Below, in pieces: positions 1,201 to 56,360 of a DNA stretch of 64,000 nt (the first letter of the stretch is position 1; every line of letters begins with the position of its first letter). The notes beneath the pieces were generated by a model. The model had not been told where the DNA came from, ran no database searches, and was given only the letters and a program-made list of their open reading frames with translations. Origin of the DNA: a virus; the IMG/VR virus record IMGVR_UViG_3300018933_000001, positions 1 to 64,000 of that record, one strand, 5' to 3'. A program made the translations under genes and the position numbers.

Positions 1201-2373
1201 TTAGTTCATTGTCTGAGCCATTAAAAGCTTAGGATTCATAACGATAGGAATAAAACTAGCAATAGTCGTCACTACATCATTTTCCGGGTCAGTATTTTCA
1301 CTACGAATCTTTAAATAGATACCTGCTTTAGGATTGGGAACATCCTTACTTGTACCTCCACCCATAATATTAGTCTTAGACTCCATAGTTGGGCCGATAG
1401 CAGAGATTCCCATATTCTCCTTCATAAAGACAATTCGGTTATCGTTAAGATAATTAACAGTAACCATCTCACCGTTAGGAAGTTCTTCTTGGTACTTCTC
1501 ACCAAAGATGGTAACTTTAGGTAGTTCACGACGTTCTAGTAGAGTTTTAGCCATATCAGTAGAAACAAGACCAATTTCAGAAGTAGTCATTGCACGAGCA
1601 GCATCCTTGGTACTCTTCTGATCTAAAAAGTGATTCCACAACTTTCTAGACATTACGATTTCATCAGGCATAAAACCATTAGTATCATAATAAAGGTCTA
1701 CTAATGTTTGGATATTGCGAAGTCCTTGAGCGTTGTTATAATCACTCCAACGATTAAGAGTAGGTTCAACAGTATTACCAGTAGCAATAAGAGGAACAGG
1801 GAAATGGTTATAAGGTGCATCTGCCTTCTTATAATCAATCTCAAATTTAGCTCCAGTAGCCATATCTTCAATAGATAATGCTCCGGTACTAGCAGCTTGC
1901 CACTTCATCATATCCATCCGGTCAACCATACCATCTAATAGATGTTGAACGTCACCAAACAAAGTAGTAGCCAAATCGTTGTTAGCGCCACGTTGAACAG
2001 TTCCGTCTGGCTTATGAATAGTTTGGATATTGCGCCACATATAATTAGCTAATTTGTAAGCTTCATATAAGTCCCACATATCATGCTCGTCATATCTACG
2101 ACGTTGAGCCAATTTAACTAATTGAGCTGCTACTTTTTCAAAGCTACCATGAGAAGTAACTGGGATTTCAGCACCCCAAGCAACAACTCTTGCAGCAGGA
2201 GCAACTCTACTCGTTAGCATTCCCATAAAGTTCCTAGTCTCAAATGTTTGAGTTGGGAAATACTTATCTATCAGCTTATCTCGTTTTAAAAGATGGCTTT
2301 CTGTTTCATCAACCAAAGCGTTTAATTGCTTGTTGATAAAAGGTTCATTGAAAAAACTTGCTACGTAACTCAT
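1201..2373 (-). CDS. Major capsid protein (lambda gpE-like, HK97 fold)
   Basis: 390 aa; ARVVAWGAEIP, RMDMMKWQAASTG and PDEIVMSRKLW resemble gpE-family capsids; synteny after protease, scaffold and decoration genes. Confidence 0.85.
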   Translation of the reverse strand: MSYVASFFNEPFINKQLNALVDETESHLLKRDKLIDKYFPTQTFETRNFMGMLTSRVAPAARVVAWGAEIPVTSHGSFEKVAAQLVKLAQRRRYDEHDMWDLYEAYKLANYMWRNIQTIHKPDGTVQRGANNDLATTLFGDVQHLLDGMVDRMDMMKWQAASTGALSIEDMATGAKFEIDYKKADAPYNHFPVPLIATGNTVEPTLNRWSDYNNAQGLRNIQTLVDLYYDTNGFMPDEIVMSRKLWNHFLDQKSTKDAARAMTTSEIGLVSTDMAKTLLERRELPKVTIFGEKYQEELPNGEMVTVNYLNDNRIVFMKENMGISAIGPTMESKTNIMGGGTSKDVPNPKAGIYLKIRSENTDPENDVVTTIASFIPIVMNPKLLMAQTMN

Positions 2374-11223: not shown

Positions 11224-12846
11224 CTAATAAAATATAGAACGTCCAGTTGACCTAACAAAATCAGAACTAGGACTTCTATTACTACCAAATATTGAACGAG
11301 AAGGAGAGGAAGTATCAGCAAAGATATTTCTTCTTTCTTTTATGTGTTCTGGGATTTCCATCATCACCTCAGTAGTATCAATAACTCTTTCATTCCTTTC
11401 CAGCCAAAGTATTCCGTAGCAGAAAGCATCCATTACATCATCATTGCGACATAGTGGAAAAGTAGTTAATTGGTCTTTAAGAGTAACTATTTTCTCGCAA
11501 GCTTCTTTAGTAGGAAAATATATCTTACCATCTCTAAAAGCAGGAATAGTAGCTTTAAGTCTAGCTTCTTTTTGGTTGCCATAATCTTTAGGTTCAAGAG
11601 CAATAAAACCAGGATATTCTTTAGATAGGGCATGAACTACAGCAGGCCCAACACTCTTATATTCTATTAACTTATGACGACAAGGGTATTTAGCTAATAA
11701 GTCTTTTAGTTCTAATAATAAATCTTCAAATCTAAGTCTCTTTTCTACTATATCTACAACATAGTATTTATTTTCATAGATGCCAAAAATTACTATCCCG
11801 GTATAGCAAGCATCATCTTCTACTGATTCAGCTAAATCTCCTGCTAGTATGTATGACTCATAAGGGGGGGCATTTTGATATTCTTTGAAGTGTTTGCTAG
11901 AGATAATACTTCCTGCTGCACCTTTAACGTTTTGCTGACACTGCCTCTCAAACTCAAATGGGGTAAACTCAATCTCCATTCGTTTGATAGCTTCTATATC
12001 TAAGAGTTCAGGAACTAATATATCCCCAACATTCTTTCTCCAATCTTTAAAACCTAATTTAGTAGAGCTAGGAGAAACACCAGTATAAAGCAAAGGTAAT
12101 ACTAATCTATCAAACCCCCCTATTTCTTCCATTAAATAACCAGAAGTATCGTTCTCTCTCAATCTCTGTTGAATAACAATTAAAGCTTTTTCTTCACTAG
12201 ACGGATTAAAACGAGAGATTAATGTTCCTCCTACAAACTTATTAGTCTTGAGAACCATTTTCTTTGAGTCTGCTTCACTAGCTTTCAATGGGTCATCTAG
12301 AATAATTACGTCTGCACCTTTACCAGTAATAGAACCACCAATTCCAATAGTATATCTTTTACCTTGATAGTTGTTATAGATTACGTTTTCAGTATCTCTT
12401 GTTAGTTCTATTGGGTCTTCTACTAAATCTTCTATAGTATTTTGAACAAGCTTGTAATAATCATCTTTAACTAATCTCCTAAACTGCTCAGAACATTCTT
12501 TAGCAATATCAAAGGTATAACTACAATAAATAAACTTAAGATGAGGTTTCTTCAACCACCAATAAGCAGGAAAATAAACTCCAGTTAGTAGAGTCTTCAT
12601 AGTACGAGGACTGATATTAATGATTAATCTCTTAATCTGTCCAGCCATTACTGCTTCTAAATGTTCGCTTAATGCTTGAGCTAACCTACTATCTCTAAAT
12701 TCTGTTGATTCTACGTGTTCAAACCCAACTTTAAGAAACTGATAGAGAGAATCAGAAACTTTTGCATATTTCTGCTGATTGAGTAGAAACTCTATTTGCT
12801 CGTCTAATGATTGAAGTTTTTTCTGTATCTTATTATTTTTAGCCAT
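11224..12846 (-). CDS. terL: Terminase large subunit (likely start ATG 12846, MAKNNKIQ)
   Basis: LIINISPRTMKT (Walker A variant), ITGKGADVIILDDP (Walker B), IVIQQRL, AGDLA, LIE and NDDVMDA nuclease motifs. Confidence 0.92.
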   Translation of the reverse strand: MAKNNKIQKKLQSLDEQIEFLLNQQKYAKVSDSLYQFLKVGFEHVESTEFRDSRLAQALSEHLEAVMAGQIKRLIINISPRTMKTLLTGVYFPAYWWLKKPHLKFIYCSYTFDIAKECSEQFRRLVKDDYYKLVQNTIEDLVEDPIELTRDTENVIYNNYQGKRYTIGIGGSITGKGADVIILDDPLKASEADSKKMVLKTNKFVGGTLISRFNPSSEEKALIVIQQRLRENDTSGYLMEEIGGFDRLVLPLLYTGVSPSSTKLGFKDWRKNVGDILVPELLDIEAIKRMEIEFTPFEFERQCQQNVKGAAGSIISSKHFKEYQNAPPYESYILAGDLAESVEDDACYTGIVIFGIYENKYYVVDIVEKRLRFEDLLLELKDLLAKYPCRHKLIEYKSVGPAVVHALSKEYPGFIALEPKDYGNQKEARLKATIPAFRDGKIYFPTKEACEKIVTLKDQLTTFPLCRNDDVMDAFCYGILWLERNERVIDTTEVMMEIPEHIKERRNIFADTSSPSRSIFGSNRSPSSDFVRSTGRSIFY

Positions 12847-13032
12847 TGTTCTGTTAAAATACTTATTAATCAATAACTTAGCACATTTCACTATGACCAA
12901 ATTAACTTCAAAACAACTAGCAGATAGAAAAAGCTTTCTTAAGTCTGCAAAACTTAGTATTAATTTCACTAACGCTTTTTTAGCAGGTCGTTGTCCAGAA
13001 CCAGAAACCCCTTATTATAAGTATGTAAAATA

Positions 13033-13254
13033 ATGATTACAAAAAAGACTGTTAACGGGAAAGAAGAAATTACCTCATGTGCTTTAGCTACTTGTTGTCT
13101 AACTGGTACATTAGAAGGAGATAATATTAAACTGACAAATGAAAAGAATGAAGTGTTAACGTGTTCCCTAGCTGAATTTGCAGAGTTAGCACAGCATTTA
13201 CATATGGAAGAGGGTATGAGGTTTTCTAGGTTAGAAGAGGGTTGGCTCCTCTAA
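13033..13254 (+). CDS. Small Cys-containing hypothetical protein
   Basis: ORF track; SCALATCC motif. Confidence 0.6.
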   Translation: MITKKTVNGKEEITSCALATCCLTGTLEGDNIKLTNEKNEVLTCSLAEFAELAQHLHMEEGMRFSRLEEGWLL

Positions 13255-13454
13255 TGAAAGCTAATAAAGAAAAAGTAATCATAGTTATTCAAAGTAGATT
13301 ACGTGAAAATGATGTAGCAGGACAAATAGCTGAATTAGGCGGGTTTGATACCTTAAAACTTCCTCTACTTTATTCAGGAAAATCCAGCAATGATAAATTA
13401 GGTTTTAAAGATTGGAAAGATGTAAAGTGGAGAACTGAAATAATTAAACCTTAA
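13254..13454 (+). CDS. 66-aa mini-protein homologous to an internal segment of TerL
   Basis: About 34 of 51 aligned residues identical to TerL EKALIVIQQRL...KLGFKDW; ATG overlaps the upstream stop. Confidence 0.75.
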   Translation: MKANKEKVIIVIQSRLRENDVAGQIAELGGFDTLKLPLLYSGKSSNDKLGFKDWKDVKWRTEIIKP

Positions 13455-13459
13455 ATATC

Positions 13460-13468
13460 TGCTATACT
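13460..13468 (+). promoter_or_regulatory. Extended -10 promoter TGCTATACT
   Basis: Matches TGnTATAAT; intergenic. Confidence 0.5.
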
Positions 13469-13489
13469 GTTGGAAGAATCTCTACTTAG

Positions 13490-15116
13490 GTGGGGATTTT
13501 ATTTTTATTAATGGGAGAAAAACAAATAACTAACAAAGAACTTTATGACTACTTTTGGAAAATCTTTTTAGATGGAAACTCTACTAAAGAACAGAAAGCA
13601 GCAATGTTTAACGCTAGACAACTCTGGCATCAGTTTGAAGATAATATTTATGAAAAATACGGTAAAGGGATAGTTGCTCCTAGTAATATTTGTGATACTT
13701 CTAATCCTTTCACAATTCATTTTACTTGGGATGATGATAATGACTTAGAAAGAAATGTTTTAGGATGTTCTATAAATGAAAACCAAGAAGTATATATTTG
13801 CTTTTGTAAAAGTATTTGGGTAAAAGAAAACTTAGATAGTTCTTGTAGAGCAGACGTTGAGAATTGGGCAGAGTATTTAATTTTACCAGATATAGAGATG
13901 CCAGAAAGATTAAGGAGAATTTTTTATCAACACTACTTAAAGAAAAACAATGGTCACTAATTATCAACTGAACAGAAGACAACGAATGAACGAATATTTA
14001 GACTCTCTTAAAGAAGAAGCTATTCGGATTAATGGAGATGAATCAGTTATTTGGTTAGCAAAAGACTTTTTAACTCTATTCATCAATAAGCTAGCTCAAC
14101 AGAACAAAGTATTAGAAGTTCCGGATTGTTGCCCTAGTGAAAGTAACGAAGGAAATTTTCATATAATGTTCATTTGGGATAAAGATGAGCATTATTTAGA
14201 GTGTGAAATATTCAATAGTGGAGTTATTGAATTCTTCTATCGTAATAGAGACAGTGGAGAAGATTGGGGTTGGGATTTAAACTATAGTGTAGTTAAACCA
14301 GGTTTTAATAATCATTCAGATGAGTTAATAGATAAGTTATCTCTATTTGTGGAGTAAGTAAATGCCAAAACTAAAAAATATAGAGCAGTATTTAGACAGA
14401 CAACAGAAAATAAGAGGTAGGAGTTACGATAAGCTTATTAACATTGCTAGAAGCTACTGGTTCGCATTTAAACTCCAAGCTAAAAATTATAACAGAAAAC
14501 TTAAAGTCCCAGAAGTATCTATTAATAACGGTCACGTAGAATTTCGATGGTGGTTAGAAGAAGATTATAAAGATGTTTCTACTGAGTTAGTAGTAGAGAT
14601 TACTGAAAAAGACTCTTACTACTATTTTGAAAATGATGAAAGAGGATTAGTTTGGGAGAAACATTACGAACCTCTCATTCCTCCTTATGGAATTCCCACT
14701 GACATTTACAATAAAGTTCTATTATTCACTGAGGAAGTATGAGTAAAGAGCAAGAGTTATTTGATGAGATAGAATCTTATCGAGAAACTGTTATTAAAGT
14801 AGATGCTAGTAAGTTAGTATCTACTACAATCAAACATTGGAAGTTTCTTAAGTATTATATTGAACTAAATTGCGGTAAAAAGCTAGCTATCCCAAAGATG
14901 TCCTTTAGTAATAACGATATTCGGTATCCAGAAATAACTTTATACTGGGGCTTGTCCTCTCATCATTTAGATTTAGAAATTGAACAAGACAGAGAAAATA
15001 TCTGGGTGTACTACCATAATGAATCTACTAAAGAAGAAATTAGTTACTGGTACAAGTTAGAAAACATATTAGAAGATAGATTAGTTGATAAGTTACTACT
15101 GTTTATTGAGGAATAA
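13490..15116 (+). CDS. Four tandem paralogous hypothetical genes (13490, 13950, 14362, 14739)
   Basis: Shared 'P....(F/Y)xW....L..EI' core; three end in (D/N)K(L/V)xLFxE; related gene at 55418. Confidence 0.7.
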
Positions 15117-20140: not shown

Positions 20141-21817
20141 TTATTCCACTACATATCCAGCTATTGTTTTACCCTCCACACTTTTCCGAGTTGGTTTAAT
20201 CTCAAATACTTTCTCTACGTCGCTAGCCTTAGCTTTCTTATCCATTCCTAAGTCTTTATATAGATTACTTAAGATAATCTTTATGTCTTTAGAACTATGA
20301 AATCCCGGTTGAAATTTATTTTTTATTTCTAGCAGAATAACATCTTGCGACCTACGATTATTTAATTCAGTTCTTATCTTGCTAGGTTGGAAACATAATC
20401 GTTTATAATCATCTTTAACCATTAAGTCTTTACTTTCTTCTATTAAAGAACACAACTTACTAGCAGCTTCCAAATCAATAGTTCCTTCACAATAAGCTTT
20501 GATAATGTTCTTAGCATTCTTAGTTACCATGAAGTTTAGTTTAAGAGACTTGTTAGCTGCTAACTCAAATCTATTACTGTTTTCGTAGAAGTTATTAATA
20601 GATAATCCGTTCTTATAAACTTCTATTACATCTTTAAAGATTCTCTTCTCTAGTAGAACTAATAGCTCATCGAAATATACTACTCCATCGTCATTAATAG
20701 CTAAATAACTCTCATCAGTAAATCCTTTAGCTAAAGCTTCTTTCTCTTCATTAGTCCCTTTATTGTATAAACTCAACCAATGATTAGTAGTTTTAGTTTT
20801 AGTCTCTACTAAAGAATCAAACTCTTCTTTAGTCATTAGTAGAGGATTTTCATTAAAGATATGGAAGATAATACTTCTAAAAGGATTAGTCTCAGTTCGT
20901 ATTCTTCCAGCTACTTGATAAATATCCGTATCAATAGAAATTAATGTATTCTTATTTCTGTTGTTAGATATTACAAATGCGACTCCTAAATCTGAATAGA
21001 TATCGACTCCTTTAAATGCACAAGAAGTAACAAAGTTAAACATTTTCTCTGGGTCGTTAGGAGTAGAGATATCATAATCTCCTAATTTCTTCTTATTCTC
21101 AGGAGAGTTACTACAAATGATTCTACATTCACTAGATAGCATTTCTGACTTATCTAGTATTTCCCTAATCATAGTTACAGAGTTGACATAGAAATAAGCA
21201 GTTTCAGGTTTATGGTTGTTAATGATGTCCATAGTACCTGTTCTATATTTCTCAATAATACAAGTAGCAGCATAAAGAGGCCGAGATGTTTGATGGGGTT
21301 CTACTTGTACTGGAGTTATGTTCTCCCATTCAAGTTCTGTGTAAGGTAAATTGACTAACTCTTTAGGTAAGAATTCCTTATCAATTGGAGTAGCAGATAT
21401 ATAGCTTACTAATGGAAAAGATATTAGAGTTGTTAGTAGAGAGTTAATAGCTTTATTTCGATACGAATACGCATCAAGTAAATCGCTAAACTCATCTATT
21501 ACGATATGGTAAGAAGGACTAATTAGATTAGCTACTCGACAAAAGCTATCGTAAGTAACCATTATTTTAGGAACTTCTACTTCCTTGAGATAGTTAGATA
21601 TATCTTTAGTTGAGATACCTGAGTAAACTCCTAATATGTTTTTTTGTCTTCTATTATTGGGATATTGAGCTACTTTGTTCTTAATCATTGCTACTGTAGG
21701 AACTACTAGAACTAAGGGTTCTGAGTTCTCTAAAGCAAATGAAGACATTCCACAGCCAGTAATCTTCTTATCTACTATTCCAAGAGGGATTGAATAGTAT
21801 TTATCCGAGTAATACAT
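20141..21817 (-). CDS. Superfamily-2 helicase-like protein, possibly origin-binding/replication initiator
   Basis: KKITGCGMS (Walker A variant), VLVVPT, VTYDS, IVIDEF, ISATP, TSCAFKGVD and QVAGRIR. Confidence 0.8.
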   Translation of the reverse strand: MYYSDKYYSIPLGIVDKKITGCGMSSFALENSEPLVLVVPTVAMIKNKVAQYPNNRRQKNILGVYSGISTKDISNYLKEVEVPKIMVTYDSFCRVANLISPSYHIVIDEFSDLLDAYSYRNKAINSLLTTLISFPLVSYISATPIDKEFLPKELVNLPYTELEWENITPVQVEPHQTSRPLYAATCIIEKYRTGTMDIINNHKPETAYFYVNSVTMIREILDKSEMLSSECRIICSNSPENKKKLGDYDISTPNDPEKMFNFVTSCAFKGVDIYSDLGVAFVISNNRNKNTLISIDTDIYQVAGRIRTETNPFRSIIFHIFNENPLLMTKEEFDSLVETKTKTTNHWLSLYNKGTNEEKEALAKGFTDESYLAINDDGVVYFDELLVLLEKRIFKDVIEVYKNGLSINNFYENSNRFELAANKSLKLNFMVTKNAKNIIKAYCEGTIDLEAASKLCSLIEESKDLMVKDDYKRLCFQPSKIRTELNNRRSQDVILLEIKNKFQPGFHSSKDIKIILSNLYKDLGMDKKAKASDVEKVFEIKPTRKSVEGKTIAGYVVE

Positions 21818-26396: not shown

Positions 26397-27277
26397 ATGA
26401 AAGATAATGAATATTCTTTTTTACAGAAATTAACTCCAGATGAAGTTAAAGATAAACTAAGACCCTTTATCGTTAATGGGAGGGAAGTATTTGAAAGAGG
26501 TGATTACTCATTAGTGTTTATTGATAGTAAAGAGACTGTTTATGCTTTACATTCTAGTTTGTTTACTGATGAAGAGGAAGAGTATTATTGGTGGGTAAGT
26601 GTAGATGTATTAAGTCTCTATCATGCTCATTATCCTGAACTAATTAAGGGAGATGACATTATTGCTCTTAAGATTAAGAACTTAGATGATTGTTATGTAG
26701 CAGTTCCTAGTAAGTTTAATTCTCAAGATTGGGAAGCTACCTATGTTTCTAGAAGAGGATTTTTTGATATTTTTCTTACAAATAAGAAGACTAATGAGAT
26801 TGTTAAATTAAAGTCGGGTATTAATTCTACTGCTCAAATAGCTATTGATTCAGCTTATAAATGGTTTAGGGAAAGAGAGTTGGACATTACAGATTTGAGT
26901 AATTGGTTAGTTGAGTAATTATGCAGTATATAGCAAGTTTTTTTAACAGTCCAAAGAATACTTATGGGTTACAGACTTTATCTACAGAAAATAGTCTAGC
27001 TCCTATTCGTGAGTATTTTGTTATGCCTATTGAGTTAATGGATTTATATACTGGATTAGGTGGCAGAATTACTACTAAGAAAACTGATGATGGTTGGATT
27101 GTTACTATTATTAGTTACAAAGATATATTGAGAACAGTTAGTTATTTACCTATAACTTTTAGAACGTTTGTAGGTAGAGATGAAGAGAAGATAAAAGATG
27201 AAGCTATTAGTTGGTTCAAGAAGAATAAGTTAGATATTTGTAATATTAATGATTGGTTAGTAAGAGATTCGTTATGA
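26397..27277 (+). CDS. Paralog pair; 26921 begins with a capsid-like N-terminus
   Basis: Shared C-terminus A..WF....LDI....WLV; MQYIASFFNSP versus MCP MSYVASFFNEP. Confidence 0.6.
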
Positions 27278-28095: not shown

Positions 28096-28932
28096 ATGAA
28101 TCCAGAAGAAGAACTAGAACTATTATTAAAAGTGTTGAGAGAACAACCCTTACCAAAAAATGGATCTAATCCAAATCAACAAAACATCTTAAAGCTAGAT
28201 GATAAAACTTTAAAAAAGCTAACTGATATGGTAGAAGTAAGAAGTGTTAATTTTAGTGTTGAAGAGAAACTAGATAAAATTATTGAGCTGTTAGAGAAAT
28301 TAGTACCTCAACCAGTAGTTCTTAATACTCCAATAACTGTTAAGAGTGAAGACGATAACAATGTTGGTATTGATATTAACAAGTCTTTATATGAGTTAGT
28401 TAATAAGGTAGAGAAAAGACAGAAATCAGTTGGAATAGGTCAAGAAGATTTTATTAAGAGATTGAATGAAATAGATTGGGATAAGTTAGTAAATTCTTTT
28501 GGTGTACTACCTGATAATAGTTTGGAGAATCAAGTAAAAAAGAATTTGTTACCTAAAGTATTAGTAGAGAATGAGAGAAAGAGAAAGTCTAGTATTTTTA
28601 CTCCTGATGGAAAGCAGTTCTGGGTATTTAAGAAAAAGAAAGAAAAGTTTGTAAAAGTAGGTACAGCAGAAATAGTAGGAGAGCCACCTATTGTACGTAT
28701 TACTTTCTTAACTGATTATAAGAAGGAGTATATAGGTAATCCTAGTAGTTATGAATATGGCTTTTGGACAATGACTGACTATGGTGGTAGTTCTTGGCTA
28801 GGTTATCAGAAGAATCTATTAGAGTCTTATCAGTTTAAATATAATTTTACTGAGCTTCCATCTCCTGAAGGTGTTACTGGATATTTAACTGATGAAGGTC
28901 GAGTAGTTTATTATGACCAGTATCTTGAGTAG
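28096..28932 (+). CDS. 'YDQY' paralog with coiled-coil N-terminal extension
   Basis: FVKVGT...GYLTDEGRVVYYDQYLE. Confidence 0.6.
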   Translation: MNPEEELELLLKVLREQPLPKNGSNPNQQNILKLDDKTLKKLTDMVEVRSVNFSVEEKLDKIIELLEKLVPQPVVLNTPITVKSEDDNNVGIDINKSLYELVNKVEKRQKSVGIGQEDFIKRLNEIDWDKLVNSFGVLPDNSLENQVKKNLLPKVLVENERKRKSSIFTPDGKQFWVFKKKKEKFVKVGTAEIVGEPPIVRITFLTDYKKEYIGNPSSYEYGFWTMTDYGGSSWLGYQKNLLESYQFKYNFTELPSPEGVTGYLTDEGRVVYYDQYLE

Positions 28933-54495: not shown

Positions 54496-56360
54496 ATATA
54501 TTTTGGTAGTAGCAGATTATGGTAAAGAGTCTGTTTTCGTAGATTCTAAAAATATAGAATTAAACCAGAGAGAAATAAATTTACTTTCGGAAGGACTTTG
54601 GTTCTATAGTTGGCTGCTAGATATTCCTTTAGAAGTTAAAGGTAGAAGAGAACCAAAAGAGTGGGAATTTATTATAGACGAGAAACTAGATAATAAACCT
54701 TTAATAGAATCTGTTGCTAAAAAATTAATAGAAAAGATTAAAGAGTTGTTTCCTGATAAGGGACTTGAGTTTAGTGAGGAAAATAAATATGACTAAATTA
54801 CAAGCTTGGAAATTAGTAATAGTTAGTTTAATATTTGGTATTAGTGACAGAACGATTAACACTATTACTCATGACTATTCAGTAGATAGTTTACTTCAAG
54901 TAGTTTTAGGAGTAGTTCTACTTGCATTAGTGTATCAACTTTATCCCTATAATCATTAGTCACCTCCAAGAAATTTATGTCTTATCATGAACTGAAAGAA
55001 CGATTTGAGAAGTTACAAGATATTGATTTTGACGAGTATCCTGATAAGAGAGTATCACTAATTACTGACTTAGCAGAAGATATGCTATTTGAGTTAGGTA
55101 GATTAGAACGAGCTTGGTATTTATTTAAGAATAATGTTCCATCTGAAATACGTTCTTTCTATCCAAGAATAACTAAAGACCCTACTGTTAGTTGTTACAA
55201 AAATAATCATCAATTAGTAGGTACTCAATCTTTAAAGAATCTAGACTTTATTAAGTTACATGAGTTAGGACTTTATGTTCTGAGTAGTTATGAAGTTTAC
55301 TATATTAGGACAAGAGAACAAATAGGTTATATCTCTAATTTTTTAGAAGGAGAGCTAAAAGAAGTTGTAGCTTTTGAAGATTATCATTACGAAATAAACT
55401 TTGATTAAGGGGCTGAAATGAACAACCTTACTAATACATCTAGTGTTTTATGGAAGTTAAGAGATAAGTACCCTCAGTACGAGTTATCTGATGTAACTTT
55501 AGAAACTGCTGAGAAGTTAGTAGATAAATTATACATAACAGCTAGGAAGCAAAAGTTATGGTGGTTCCCTCCTAGAGTAGGTGGAGATTATTATCAAGTA
55601 GACTTGTATTGGGAACATAATAGAAAGAGGTATGACATATTTATAGAAGAGAATGAAATAAATTATATTGCTTATTGGGGAAACAAAACTGATGCAGAAA
55701 GAGAGCATGGAGACATAAATATAAAGAATGATTTAACTGATTTTTGGGAATGGATAGCTGAGTAATTAAATTAATAACATCTACTAATAAGGAGACTACT
55801 ATGAATAGAAAGACATTACCAAGATTTCTCAACAGACGGAAAATAGTAATAGAAGCTTTAGTTAAGGCTAGGGGTAATGGGGGTAACTCAGGAGATATAT
55901 TATACAATCCTAAATCTCTAGTTATAAGTAATAAGTTGTTTAAAAACTCTCCTTCATCTATCATTTCTACTGGTGATAAACCTAAGAACTACAAATATTC
56001 TAGTAAATCCAGAGGTAATAAGAAGTTAGGAGATAAAGCCAGAGACATTTATGAAGATGATTGGGATAAACTAGAAACACCTTCTATTAAGAAAAGGAGA
56101 TATTAATGAAGAAAGTAATACCTCAAAAAGTAGCTAATAAGGTTTATATCTTACTCCAACCAAAGAATCAGAGAAGATTAGGAATAGCAAATAATTGGAT
56201 AGAAGAGAAAGCTTATAAATCTGGAACTACTGAACTATCTAATAGGTTATACAAAATTCAGTAGGTTTTCTTTCTTTAGTAGATAAGAGGCATAAACCAC
56301 AAGTTGACCTAAAACGTCATAAACTCAATAAGCTATTAATCCAGTCACAAGAGAAACTAA

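Follow-up and report, generated by a model that had tools for sequence, protein, structure and literature searches.

Why does a phage keep, beside its large terminase gene (terL) and on the opposite strand, a 66-amino-acid (aa) gene whose product resembles an internal piece of the terminase (TerL) itself? The phage in question is uncultured and comes from desert soil crust (a biocrust metagenome). Its whole genome, which has direct terminal repeats, is a 146.5-kb IMG/VR virus record, and the first 64 kb of that record constitute the stretch analysed here, which we call the window. We refer to the small gene as mini-TerL, or mini. It had been described, from the DNA letters, as a stand-alone copy of part of the phage's own terminase, and a decoy for terminase-sensing defence, a dominant-negative packaging inhibitor and a recombination remnant had been offered as explanations. 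The features of the locus are as follows.

11224-12846, minus strand: terL, large terminase, 540 aa (phrog_38, E 1e-68; Pfam Terminase_6C, PF17289, E 1e-4)
12037-12201, minus strand: terL segment matching mini, encoding the coupling-motif strand, a helix, the last core strand and the start of the loop toward the linker helix
12852-12860, plus strand: extended -10-like element TGTTAAAAT, 6 nt beyond the terL start
12893-13033, plus strand: possible 46-aa open reading frame (ORF) of uncertain status, inside an insertion of ~135 nt specific to this phage
13033-13254, plus strand: up73, a 73-aa Cys-rich gene (from tblastn in relatives and gene maps)
13254-13454, plus strand: mini, 66 aa plus stop (BLASTP match to TerL residues 216-270, weaker onward to about residue 280)
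13460-13510, plus strand: unit of TGCTATACT (extended -10-like), an 11-bp hairpin (13475-13500) and a T-rich run; a terminator-like hit

The terL gene is the first of a leftward head/packaging block. Its start codon was confirmed at 12846 and not at 12969, where the original prediction had placed it. An AlphaFold2 model of TerL (pLDDT 87) had as its top solved match in Foldseek the PhiV-1 terminase (8dgc_E, E 7.6e-20), a structure of that terminase within an Avs3 complex. The P-loop, SPRTMKT, lies at about residues 80-86 and the Walker B motif, ILDDP, at about residues 183-187. Neither a DNA nor a protein match was found among INPHARED phages, and the TerL of this phage has no relative among GTDB genome contigs. 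Two distant TerL homologues, P0034 (908 aa) and P0067 (724 aa), carry intein/Hint domains (PF07591, PF14890); a tie of mini to these intein-bearing proteins or to the split-TerL PHROGs 4758 and 5573 was considered and dropped, as no connection was seen.

The similarity between mini and TerL is clear. BLASTP aligned the two at 34 of 55 identities (62%) and 44 of 55 positives with 2 gaps (E 9e-20), and a sequence search of the whole 146.5-kb genome returned 12037-12201 on the minus strand as the sole second copy of mini (E 1e-17). The genes lie on opposite strands, as had been claimed, and mini is coupled to its upstream neighbour: the up73 stop codon TAA (13252-13254) and the mini start codon ATG (13254-13256) have one base in common (TAATG). 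The many synonymous differences reported earlier are equally evident, with a DNA identity of 64% over the codon alignment and a dS of about 1 between mini and terL. A perfectly identical run, previously given as 22 nt, does exist, but its length is 23 nt (AAA TTA GGT TTT AAA GAT TGG A). The run spells the conserved heptapeptide KLGFKDW in preferred codons, is equally present against the terL of the relative L005 and corresponds to a stretch that is deleted in another mini allele, L003; for these reasons we attach no special meaning to it, and codon bias on the heptapeptide rules it out as a sign of gene conversion or of antisense pairing. The two copies were also rejected as an inverted-repeat recombination substrate, because at 64% identity they are too diverged and an inversion would break terL. 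In an all-vs-all BLASTP of 663 ORFs (E <= 1e-5), no small ORF other than mini matched an interior part of a protein with a role in the head or in packaging.

Other relationships within the genome involve different genes. A 118-aa accessory ORF (26921-27277, plus strand) starts with MQYIASFFNSP, which is identical at 8 of 11 positions to MSYVASFFNEP, the N terminus of the probable major capsid protein (1201-2373, minus strand); this N-terminal match was confirmed, and makes the ORF a second case in which part of a structural gene recurs within an accessory gene. A 278-aa ORF (28096-28932, plus strand) shares 51% identity over 37 residues (E 2e-6) with a 3,121-aa protein (genome positions 126628-135993, minus strand), the matched part being the extreme C terminus of the latter. 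Two proteins of ~560-595 aa, encoded at 20141-21817 (minus strand) and at genome positions 90731-92518 (minus strand), are paralogues with 40% identity over 577 aa (E 1e-137).

Which part of the terminase does mini represent? In the TerL model, whose numbering equals the true residue plus one, the segment contains a strand (222-227), a helix (235-243) and a second strand (247-251), followed by a loop to about residues 282-284. Both Walker A (the P-loop) and Walker B lie outside the model residues 217-271 that mini covers, and the ORF stops at a position corresponding to TerL residue ~280, short of the C-terminal RNase H-like nuclease domain (PF17289). Compared with TerL, mini thus covers ~55-65 of 540 residues and lacks Walker A, Walker B and the nuclease. 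The polar residue of the coupling motif is also changed: Gln228, near-invariant across the 64 TerLs over which invariance was scored, is replaced by Ser in all seven mini alleles ([KQ]SRL). Given the missing Walker motifs and this replacement in every allele, the mini sequence is that of a TerL derivative that cannot be an enzyme.

The alignment of the seven alleles defines a family motif, D-K-V-x-I-x-I-[KQ]-S-R-L-x-E-x-D ... F-[DN] ... L-P-[LI]-x-[YF], with seven invariant positions (S14, R15, L16, D20, F31, L36 and P37). R15, L16, D20 and P37 correspond to the invariant or near-invariant R229, L230, D234 and P252 of TerL, and the strand/helix/strand hydrophobic pattern is kept in all alleles. 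Mini is clearly homologous in sequence to this part of the TerL ATPase (phrog_38; the fold of PhiV-1/T7 gp19, 8DGC chain E, and of T4 gp17, 3CPE). The kept residues may, however, have persisted because divergence time was limited, and not because a contact of the TerL type was retained. Modelled alone in AlphaFold2 from an alignment of only 7 sequences, mini reached a pLDDT of 51 and a pTM of 0.21. These predictions suggest that it probably lacks an autonomous fold and is likely to be a strand-helix-strand piece with exposed edges, needing a partner.

Relatives were collected through TerL-guided scans of IMG/VR and JGI metagenomes, together with look-ups of protein hits, which yielded ~19 distinct related lineages with TerLs 66-98% identical. 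About one-third of the related phages carry mini, in seven distinct alleles (the window, L008/L011, L003, L026, L027/28, L029 and L030-32) that are 31-80% identical to each other and 48-66 aa long, one of them fused into a product of 150 aa. In the remaining ~12 lineages, up73 is followed directly by the hairpin unit. When a profile built on the first mini alleles was run against 1.84 billion representative proteins, it matched TerLs, the window's own protein and five short proteins (P0003, 59 aa; P0005, 63; P0006, 65; P0007, 150; P0009, 48), and nothing else. A word-based search for short proteins resembling TerL 210-285 found none, and a near-length search with mini as the query returned mini itself and one allele only. 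A feature search of the ESM Atlas gave unnamed clusters of 39-76 aa with scores of 0.94-0.96, which may be fragments of TerL at contig ends. Mini and its neighbours have no Pfam or PHROG match.

Gene order is the same at every locus of a short protein: HU (plus), terL (minus), an up gene of 63-84 aa (plus), mini (plus) and the hairpin unit. Mini abuts or overlaps the stop codon of the up gene in relatives, with differing junction sequences. The sequences that flank mini in L003 directly adjoin each other in L009 and L004, and on a related contig from the same biocrust study the up gene is joined to the hairpin unit and mini is missing. One lineage carries a fusion:

L029 490-942, plus strand: mini fusion, 150 aa (P0007), in frame with an 88-residue accessory domain

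The fused domain is homologous to a window ORF at 55418-55765 (29% identity over 87 aa, E 5e-10). Both subtypes of TerL are found among the carriers of mini, as the TerLs of L027 and L030 lack the one-residue insertion that marks the window type; these two lineages contradict the idea that mini is confined to phages with window-type TerL as a weapon against the other type. The original prediction had named absence or decay in close relatives as the outcome that would speak against it, and this is seen in part: mini is absent from ~12 of the 19 lineages and the 48-aa allele has a dN/dS of 0.7-1.1, but the gene is intact in six lineages spanning both subtypes. With so many lineages lacking it and one allele near neutrality, mini is a dispensable accessory gene. 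On one contig (LCrCPGB2_illDRAFT_1000001, 307,959 bp) the terL region is present twice (L038 and L042), ~154 kb apart, probably because two genome copies were assembled head to tail.

The up73 gene adjoins terL in all relatives, and mini, where present, always comes directly after an up73-type gene; up73 has no Pfam or PHROG match. The spacer between terL and up73 is 42-53 nt in relatives versus 186 nt here (12847-13032). The possible 46-aa ORF in this spacer has a stop codon that overlaps the up73 ATG as TAATG, and it resembles none of the other ORFs in the genome. At the consensus level, TGTTAAAAT is a candidate promoter of the up73-mini unit; intergenic sequences from 11 loci have TGnTAnAAT or TATAAT elements at the equivalent place in relatives. 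On the other side, the TGCTATACT/hairpin unit stands immediately 3' of the mini stop codon and, in relatives without mini, directly after up73. This unit is found in all relatives, precedes the ribosome-binding site of the next gene and varies by changes that are compatible with G-U pairing; its hairpin contains G-U pairs and has a predicted folding energy of -12.2 kcal/mol (z -1.9), and the unit is unique within the window. Around the locus Rfam gave nothing beyond a chance-level hit, and the hairpin unit matched no family. Possible roles of the unit are those of a terminator combined with a promoter or of an element in a 5' leader. Downstream of it, at 13950-15116 on the plus strand, lie tandem paralogues of ~125-135 aa ending in L-x-L-F-x-E, without a Pfam or PHROG match; the array also occurs in L003-L011, L026 and L029, varying in copy number and members.

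How did a piece of terL come to stand here? The seven minis form one clade within the TerLs of the group, on long branches (aLRT 90, UFBoot 87), in a tree built from 59 shared columns, which do not fix where the clade joins the TerL tree. Besides the Gln-to-Ser replacement, the minis have in common a one-codon deletion after the YTG/YSG motif (the 48-aa allele ends before that position), and all are without the insertion of window-type TerL. Homology extends a few codons 5' of the ATG, as in L008 (SIVRMEPNNKEK) compared with TerL (LISRFNPSSEEK), and in long alleles it reaches the last codons. The description of mini as a copy of the phage's own terL therefore does not hold in a recent sense: mini is about as distant from the TerL of its own phage as from the other TerLs of the group, and it does not have the single residue inserted in the former. 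Monophyly, the common replacement and deletion, the missing insertion and the homology beyond the start codon instead indicate, at the level of sequence, that ~200 nt of a terL were captured once, long ago. Identities between pairs of phages for TerL, the up gene and mini are incongruent (98, 48 and 80% for the window and L011; 93, 83 and 43% for L011 and L026; 93, 46 and 44% for the window and L026), which points to single-gene exchange within the terL-up73-mini region.

The dN/dS comparison across homologues that had been proposed as a check supports a coding role. Most of the 21 mini pairs have values of 0.27-0.6, with Fisher p values down to <0.001; the same TerL segment has values of 0-0.2, and mini evolves far faster. 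In the comparisons of the window with L008 and L003, dN/dS is 0.34-0.36 for mini versus 0-0.03 for the TerL segment. The corresponding dS values of mini and of the TerL segment are similar (0.33 versus 0.39 for window-L008; 0.97 versus 0.78 for window-L003), indicating that mini has travelled with the genomes. The allele of L030, 48 aa long, stands apart with its dN/dS of 0.7-1.1 and may be decaying. Under neutral simulation, the chance that the frame stays open is 0.17 at a branch length of 0.16 and 0.025 at 0.5, and falls to 0.01 per lineage, and internal indels between alleles are whole codons. Derivation from terL and protein-coding behaviour, both part of the original prediction, thus find support in the homology, in seven in-frame alleles and in a dN/dS of ~0.3-0.6. 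From the dN/dS below 1, the improbably open frames, the whole-codon indels and the retained start coupling, we infer that mini is very probably a real, translated gene under relaxed purifying selection.

The function of such a gene can be proposed with less assurance. Its conserved sequence features make it quite possible that mini functions as a mimic of the TerL segment. Early in the history of the phage group, ~200 nt of a terL would have been captured, inverted, at the 3' end of a small gene diverging from terL; descendants would then have passed the captured piece on, exchanged it by recombination and in many lineages lost it. The encoded microprotein would consist of the coupling-motif strand, the helix, the last core strand and the following loop, and its exposed edge strands would bind, by strand addition, whatever grips these strands in TerL. 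Such gripping would take place on TerL that is still being made or has unfolded locally. The partner we favour, by analogy and with considerable doubt, would be a host terminase sensor of the Upx type, which mini would occupy or blunt before or during TerL synthesis. As a whole, the account of a single capture, a retained gene and a TerL-segment mimic is the one we prefer, tentatively.

The analogy comes from recent work on terminase sensing. Evans et al. 2026 (PMC13601566) describe Avs2 and Upx as sensors of terminases, and Upx is predicted by AlphaFold 3 to thread the unfolded TerL core strands beta1, beta4, beta5 and beta6 by beta-augmentation (PMC13601566). Counted in our own TerL model, the strands of mini are the fifth and sixth core strands, and from this strand count alone they may be equated with beta5 and beta6 of that study. 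Stand-alone TerL-like proteins, T4 vs.8 and Ksap1/2, interact with Avs2, and the authors suggest that such proteins might be anti-defence factors (PMC13601566). Against a decoy, vs.8 and Ksap1/2 trigger Avs2 instead of blocking it (PMC13601566).

T4 vs.8 is, like mini, a separate, lineage-restricted phage gene descended from terL and discussed in connection with terminase-sensing immunity (PMC13601566). It combines sequence homology with high structural similarity to the T4 terminase ATPase domain, has conserved Walker A and B motifs and is toxic on co-expression with EcAvs2 (PMC13601566). In contrast to vs.8, which has the full ATPase fold, mini is a 66-aa sub-domain fragment of two strands and one helix, unable to adopt such a fold, and does not qualify as a protein of the vs.8 type. 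Ksap1 and Ksap2 are small accessory phage proteins that are treated like terminase by sensors and activate Avs2 (PMC11564622; PMC13601566); they resemble the terminase ATPase structurally, with a sheet of 4-6 strands and flanking helices and no sequence homology reported (PMC13601566). Mini, unlike Ksap1/2, is a true TerL homologue and contributes two strands.

Variation among the carriers bears on the identity of the partner. Among the window, L011, L003 and L026 the TerL segment is near-identical, and the minis are 39-53% identical, except for the window and L011 (80%). Such divergence beside a near-constant TerL speaks against close mutual adaptation of mini and the TerL of the same phage, and is compatible with a quickly changing outside partner, or with generic constraints alone. 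By extension of the Upx model, there may exist a group of 'strand decoys', unfoldable microproteins derived from the buried core of the packaging ATPase that would pre-load or jam Upx-like sensors of nascent or unfolded terminase, an idea that we consider unlikely as it stands. If it were true, strand decoys would be a new anti-defence class that mimics an unfolded epitope and not a folded surface.

The mimicry reading has to be weighed against other ways in which a terL fragment could have been retained. The best surviving of these, which we regard as rather unlikely, is that mini is an exapted small protein with a role unrelated to TerL, for instance as a partner of up73 or as another early accessory factor, the terL fragment having only supplied an open frame. 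The constant position behind an up73-type gene and the start coupling to it agree with this view, as do the evolutionary rate far above that of TerL, the small number of invariant positions (seven) and the in-frame fusion of mini to an unrelated accessory domain in L029. However, four of the seven invariant positions are the TerL-invariant R, L, D and P, and the hydrophobic pattern is kept. A partnership with up73 in particular is opposed by the ~12 lineages in which up73 occurs without mini, so that up73 does not need it, and by the allele identities of mini and up73, which are uncorrelated.

Mini could instead act on packaging, by inserting into or capping the TerL of its own phage or of a co-infecting relative. 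It would replace the homologous strands during folding or block ring assembly, and would thereby time packaging or exclude competitors. Its derivation from the ATPase core beside the linker is compatible with such a modulator or dominant-negative, and so is its arrangement back to back with terL, with 42-53 nt between start codons in relatives. MicroProteins that poison their parent proteins provide a conceptual precedent. In eukaryotes, microProteins such as LITTLE ZIPPER and the Id proteins originate from a single interaction module of a larger protein, for whose partners they compete; they belong to another domain of life and have other folds, and interference is established for them and hypothesised for mini. 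The near-invariance of the TerL segment among carriers whose minis diverge is difficult to reconcile with this reading. Moreover, whatever mini did to a competitor's TerL it would do equally to the TerL of its own phage, and the strands concerned are buried in the folded ATPase core. We judge a packaging role quite unlikely.

A functionless remnant of an old terL rearrangement, its frame open by chance and its coupling the product of read-through, seems more unlikely still. The absence of mini from ~12 of 19 related lineages, the biocrust contig in which the up gene runs directly into the hairpin unit, the near-neutral 48-aa allele, and the lack of a family annotation and of a predicted autonomous fold would all be expected of it. 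Yet seven alleles have remained open despite a dS of up to ~1 or more, at a simulated chance of 0.17-0.01 per lineage; insertions and deletions within them comprise entire codons, most pairs have a dN/dS significantly below 1, and start-codon coupling has been retained in every lineage though the junctions differ. As decaying junk, the recombination remnant of the original prediction is not compatible with seven kept frames, in-frame indels and a dN/dS of ~0.3-0.6.

Control of terL expression in trans by antisense pairing of mini mRNA with terL mRNA, which the opposite orientation, the 64% identity and the 23-nt perfect run might suggest, is rejected as extremely improbable and largely refuted, since the run is a codon spelling of KLGFKDW that a foreign terL has too, uninterrupted identity of mini with its own terL extends over no more than 14 nt in L008 and 10 nt in L003 (from which the 23-nt stretch has been deleted), and synonymous sites between mini and terL are saturated, indicating selection on the protein and not on pairing.

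The preferred reading, that mini mimics the TerL segment, bears on immunity, where the terminase has emerged as a main alarm signal for several bacterial sensors (Avs1-3 and Upx). In the papers searched we found no phage counter-measure aimed at terminase sensing, and neither those papers nor Pfam or PHROGs contain a family like mini-TerL. As a gene that appears to be selected and to encode two TerL core strands and a helix, of the kind that Upx is predicted to grip, mini is a candidate for a decoy. Should it prove to be a packaging modulator, it would be an example from bacterial viruses of microprotein-type interference. Either way, mini would indicate that phages can form new genes from pieces, smaller than a domain, of an essential structural enzyme, and can retain them.
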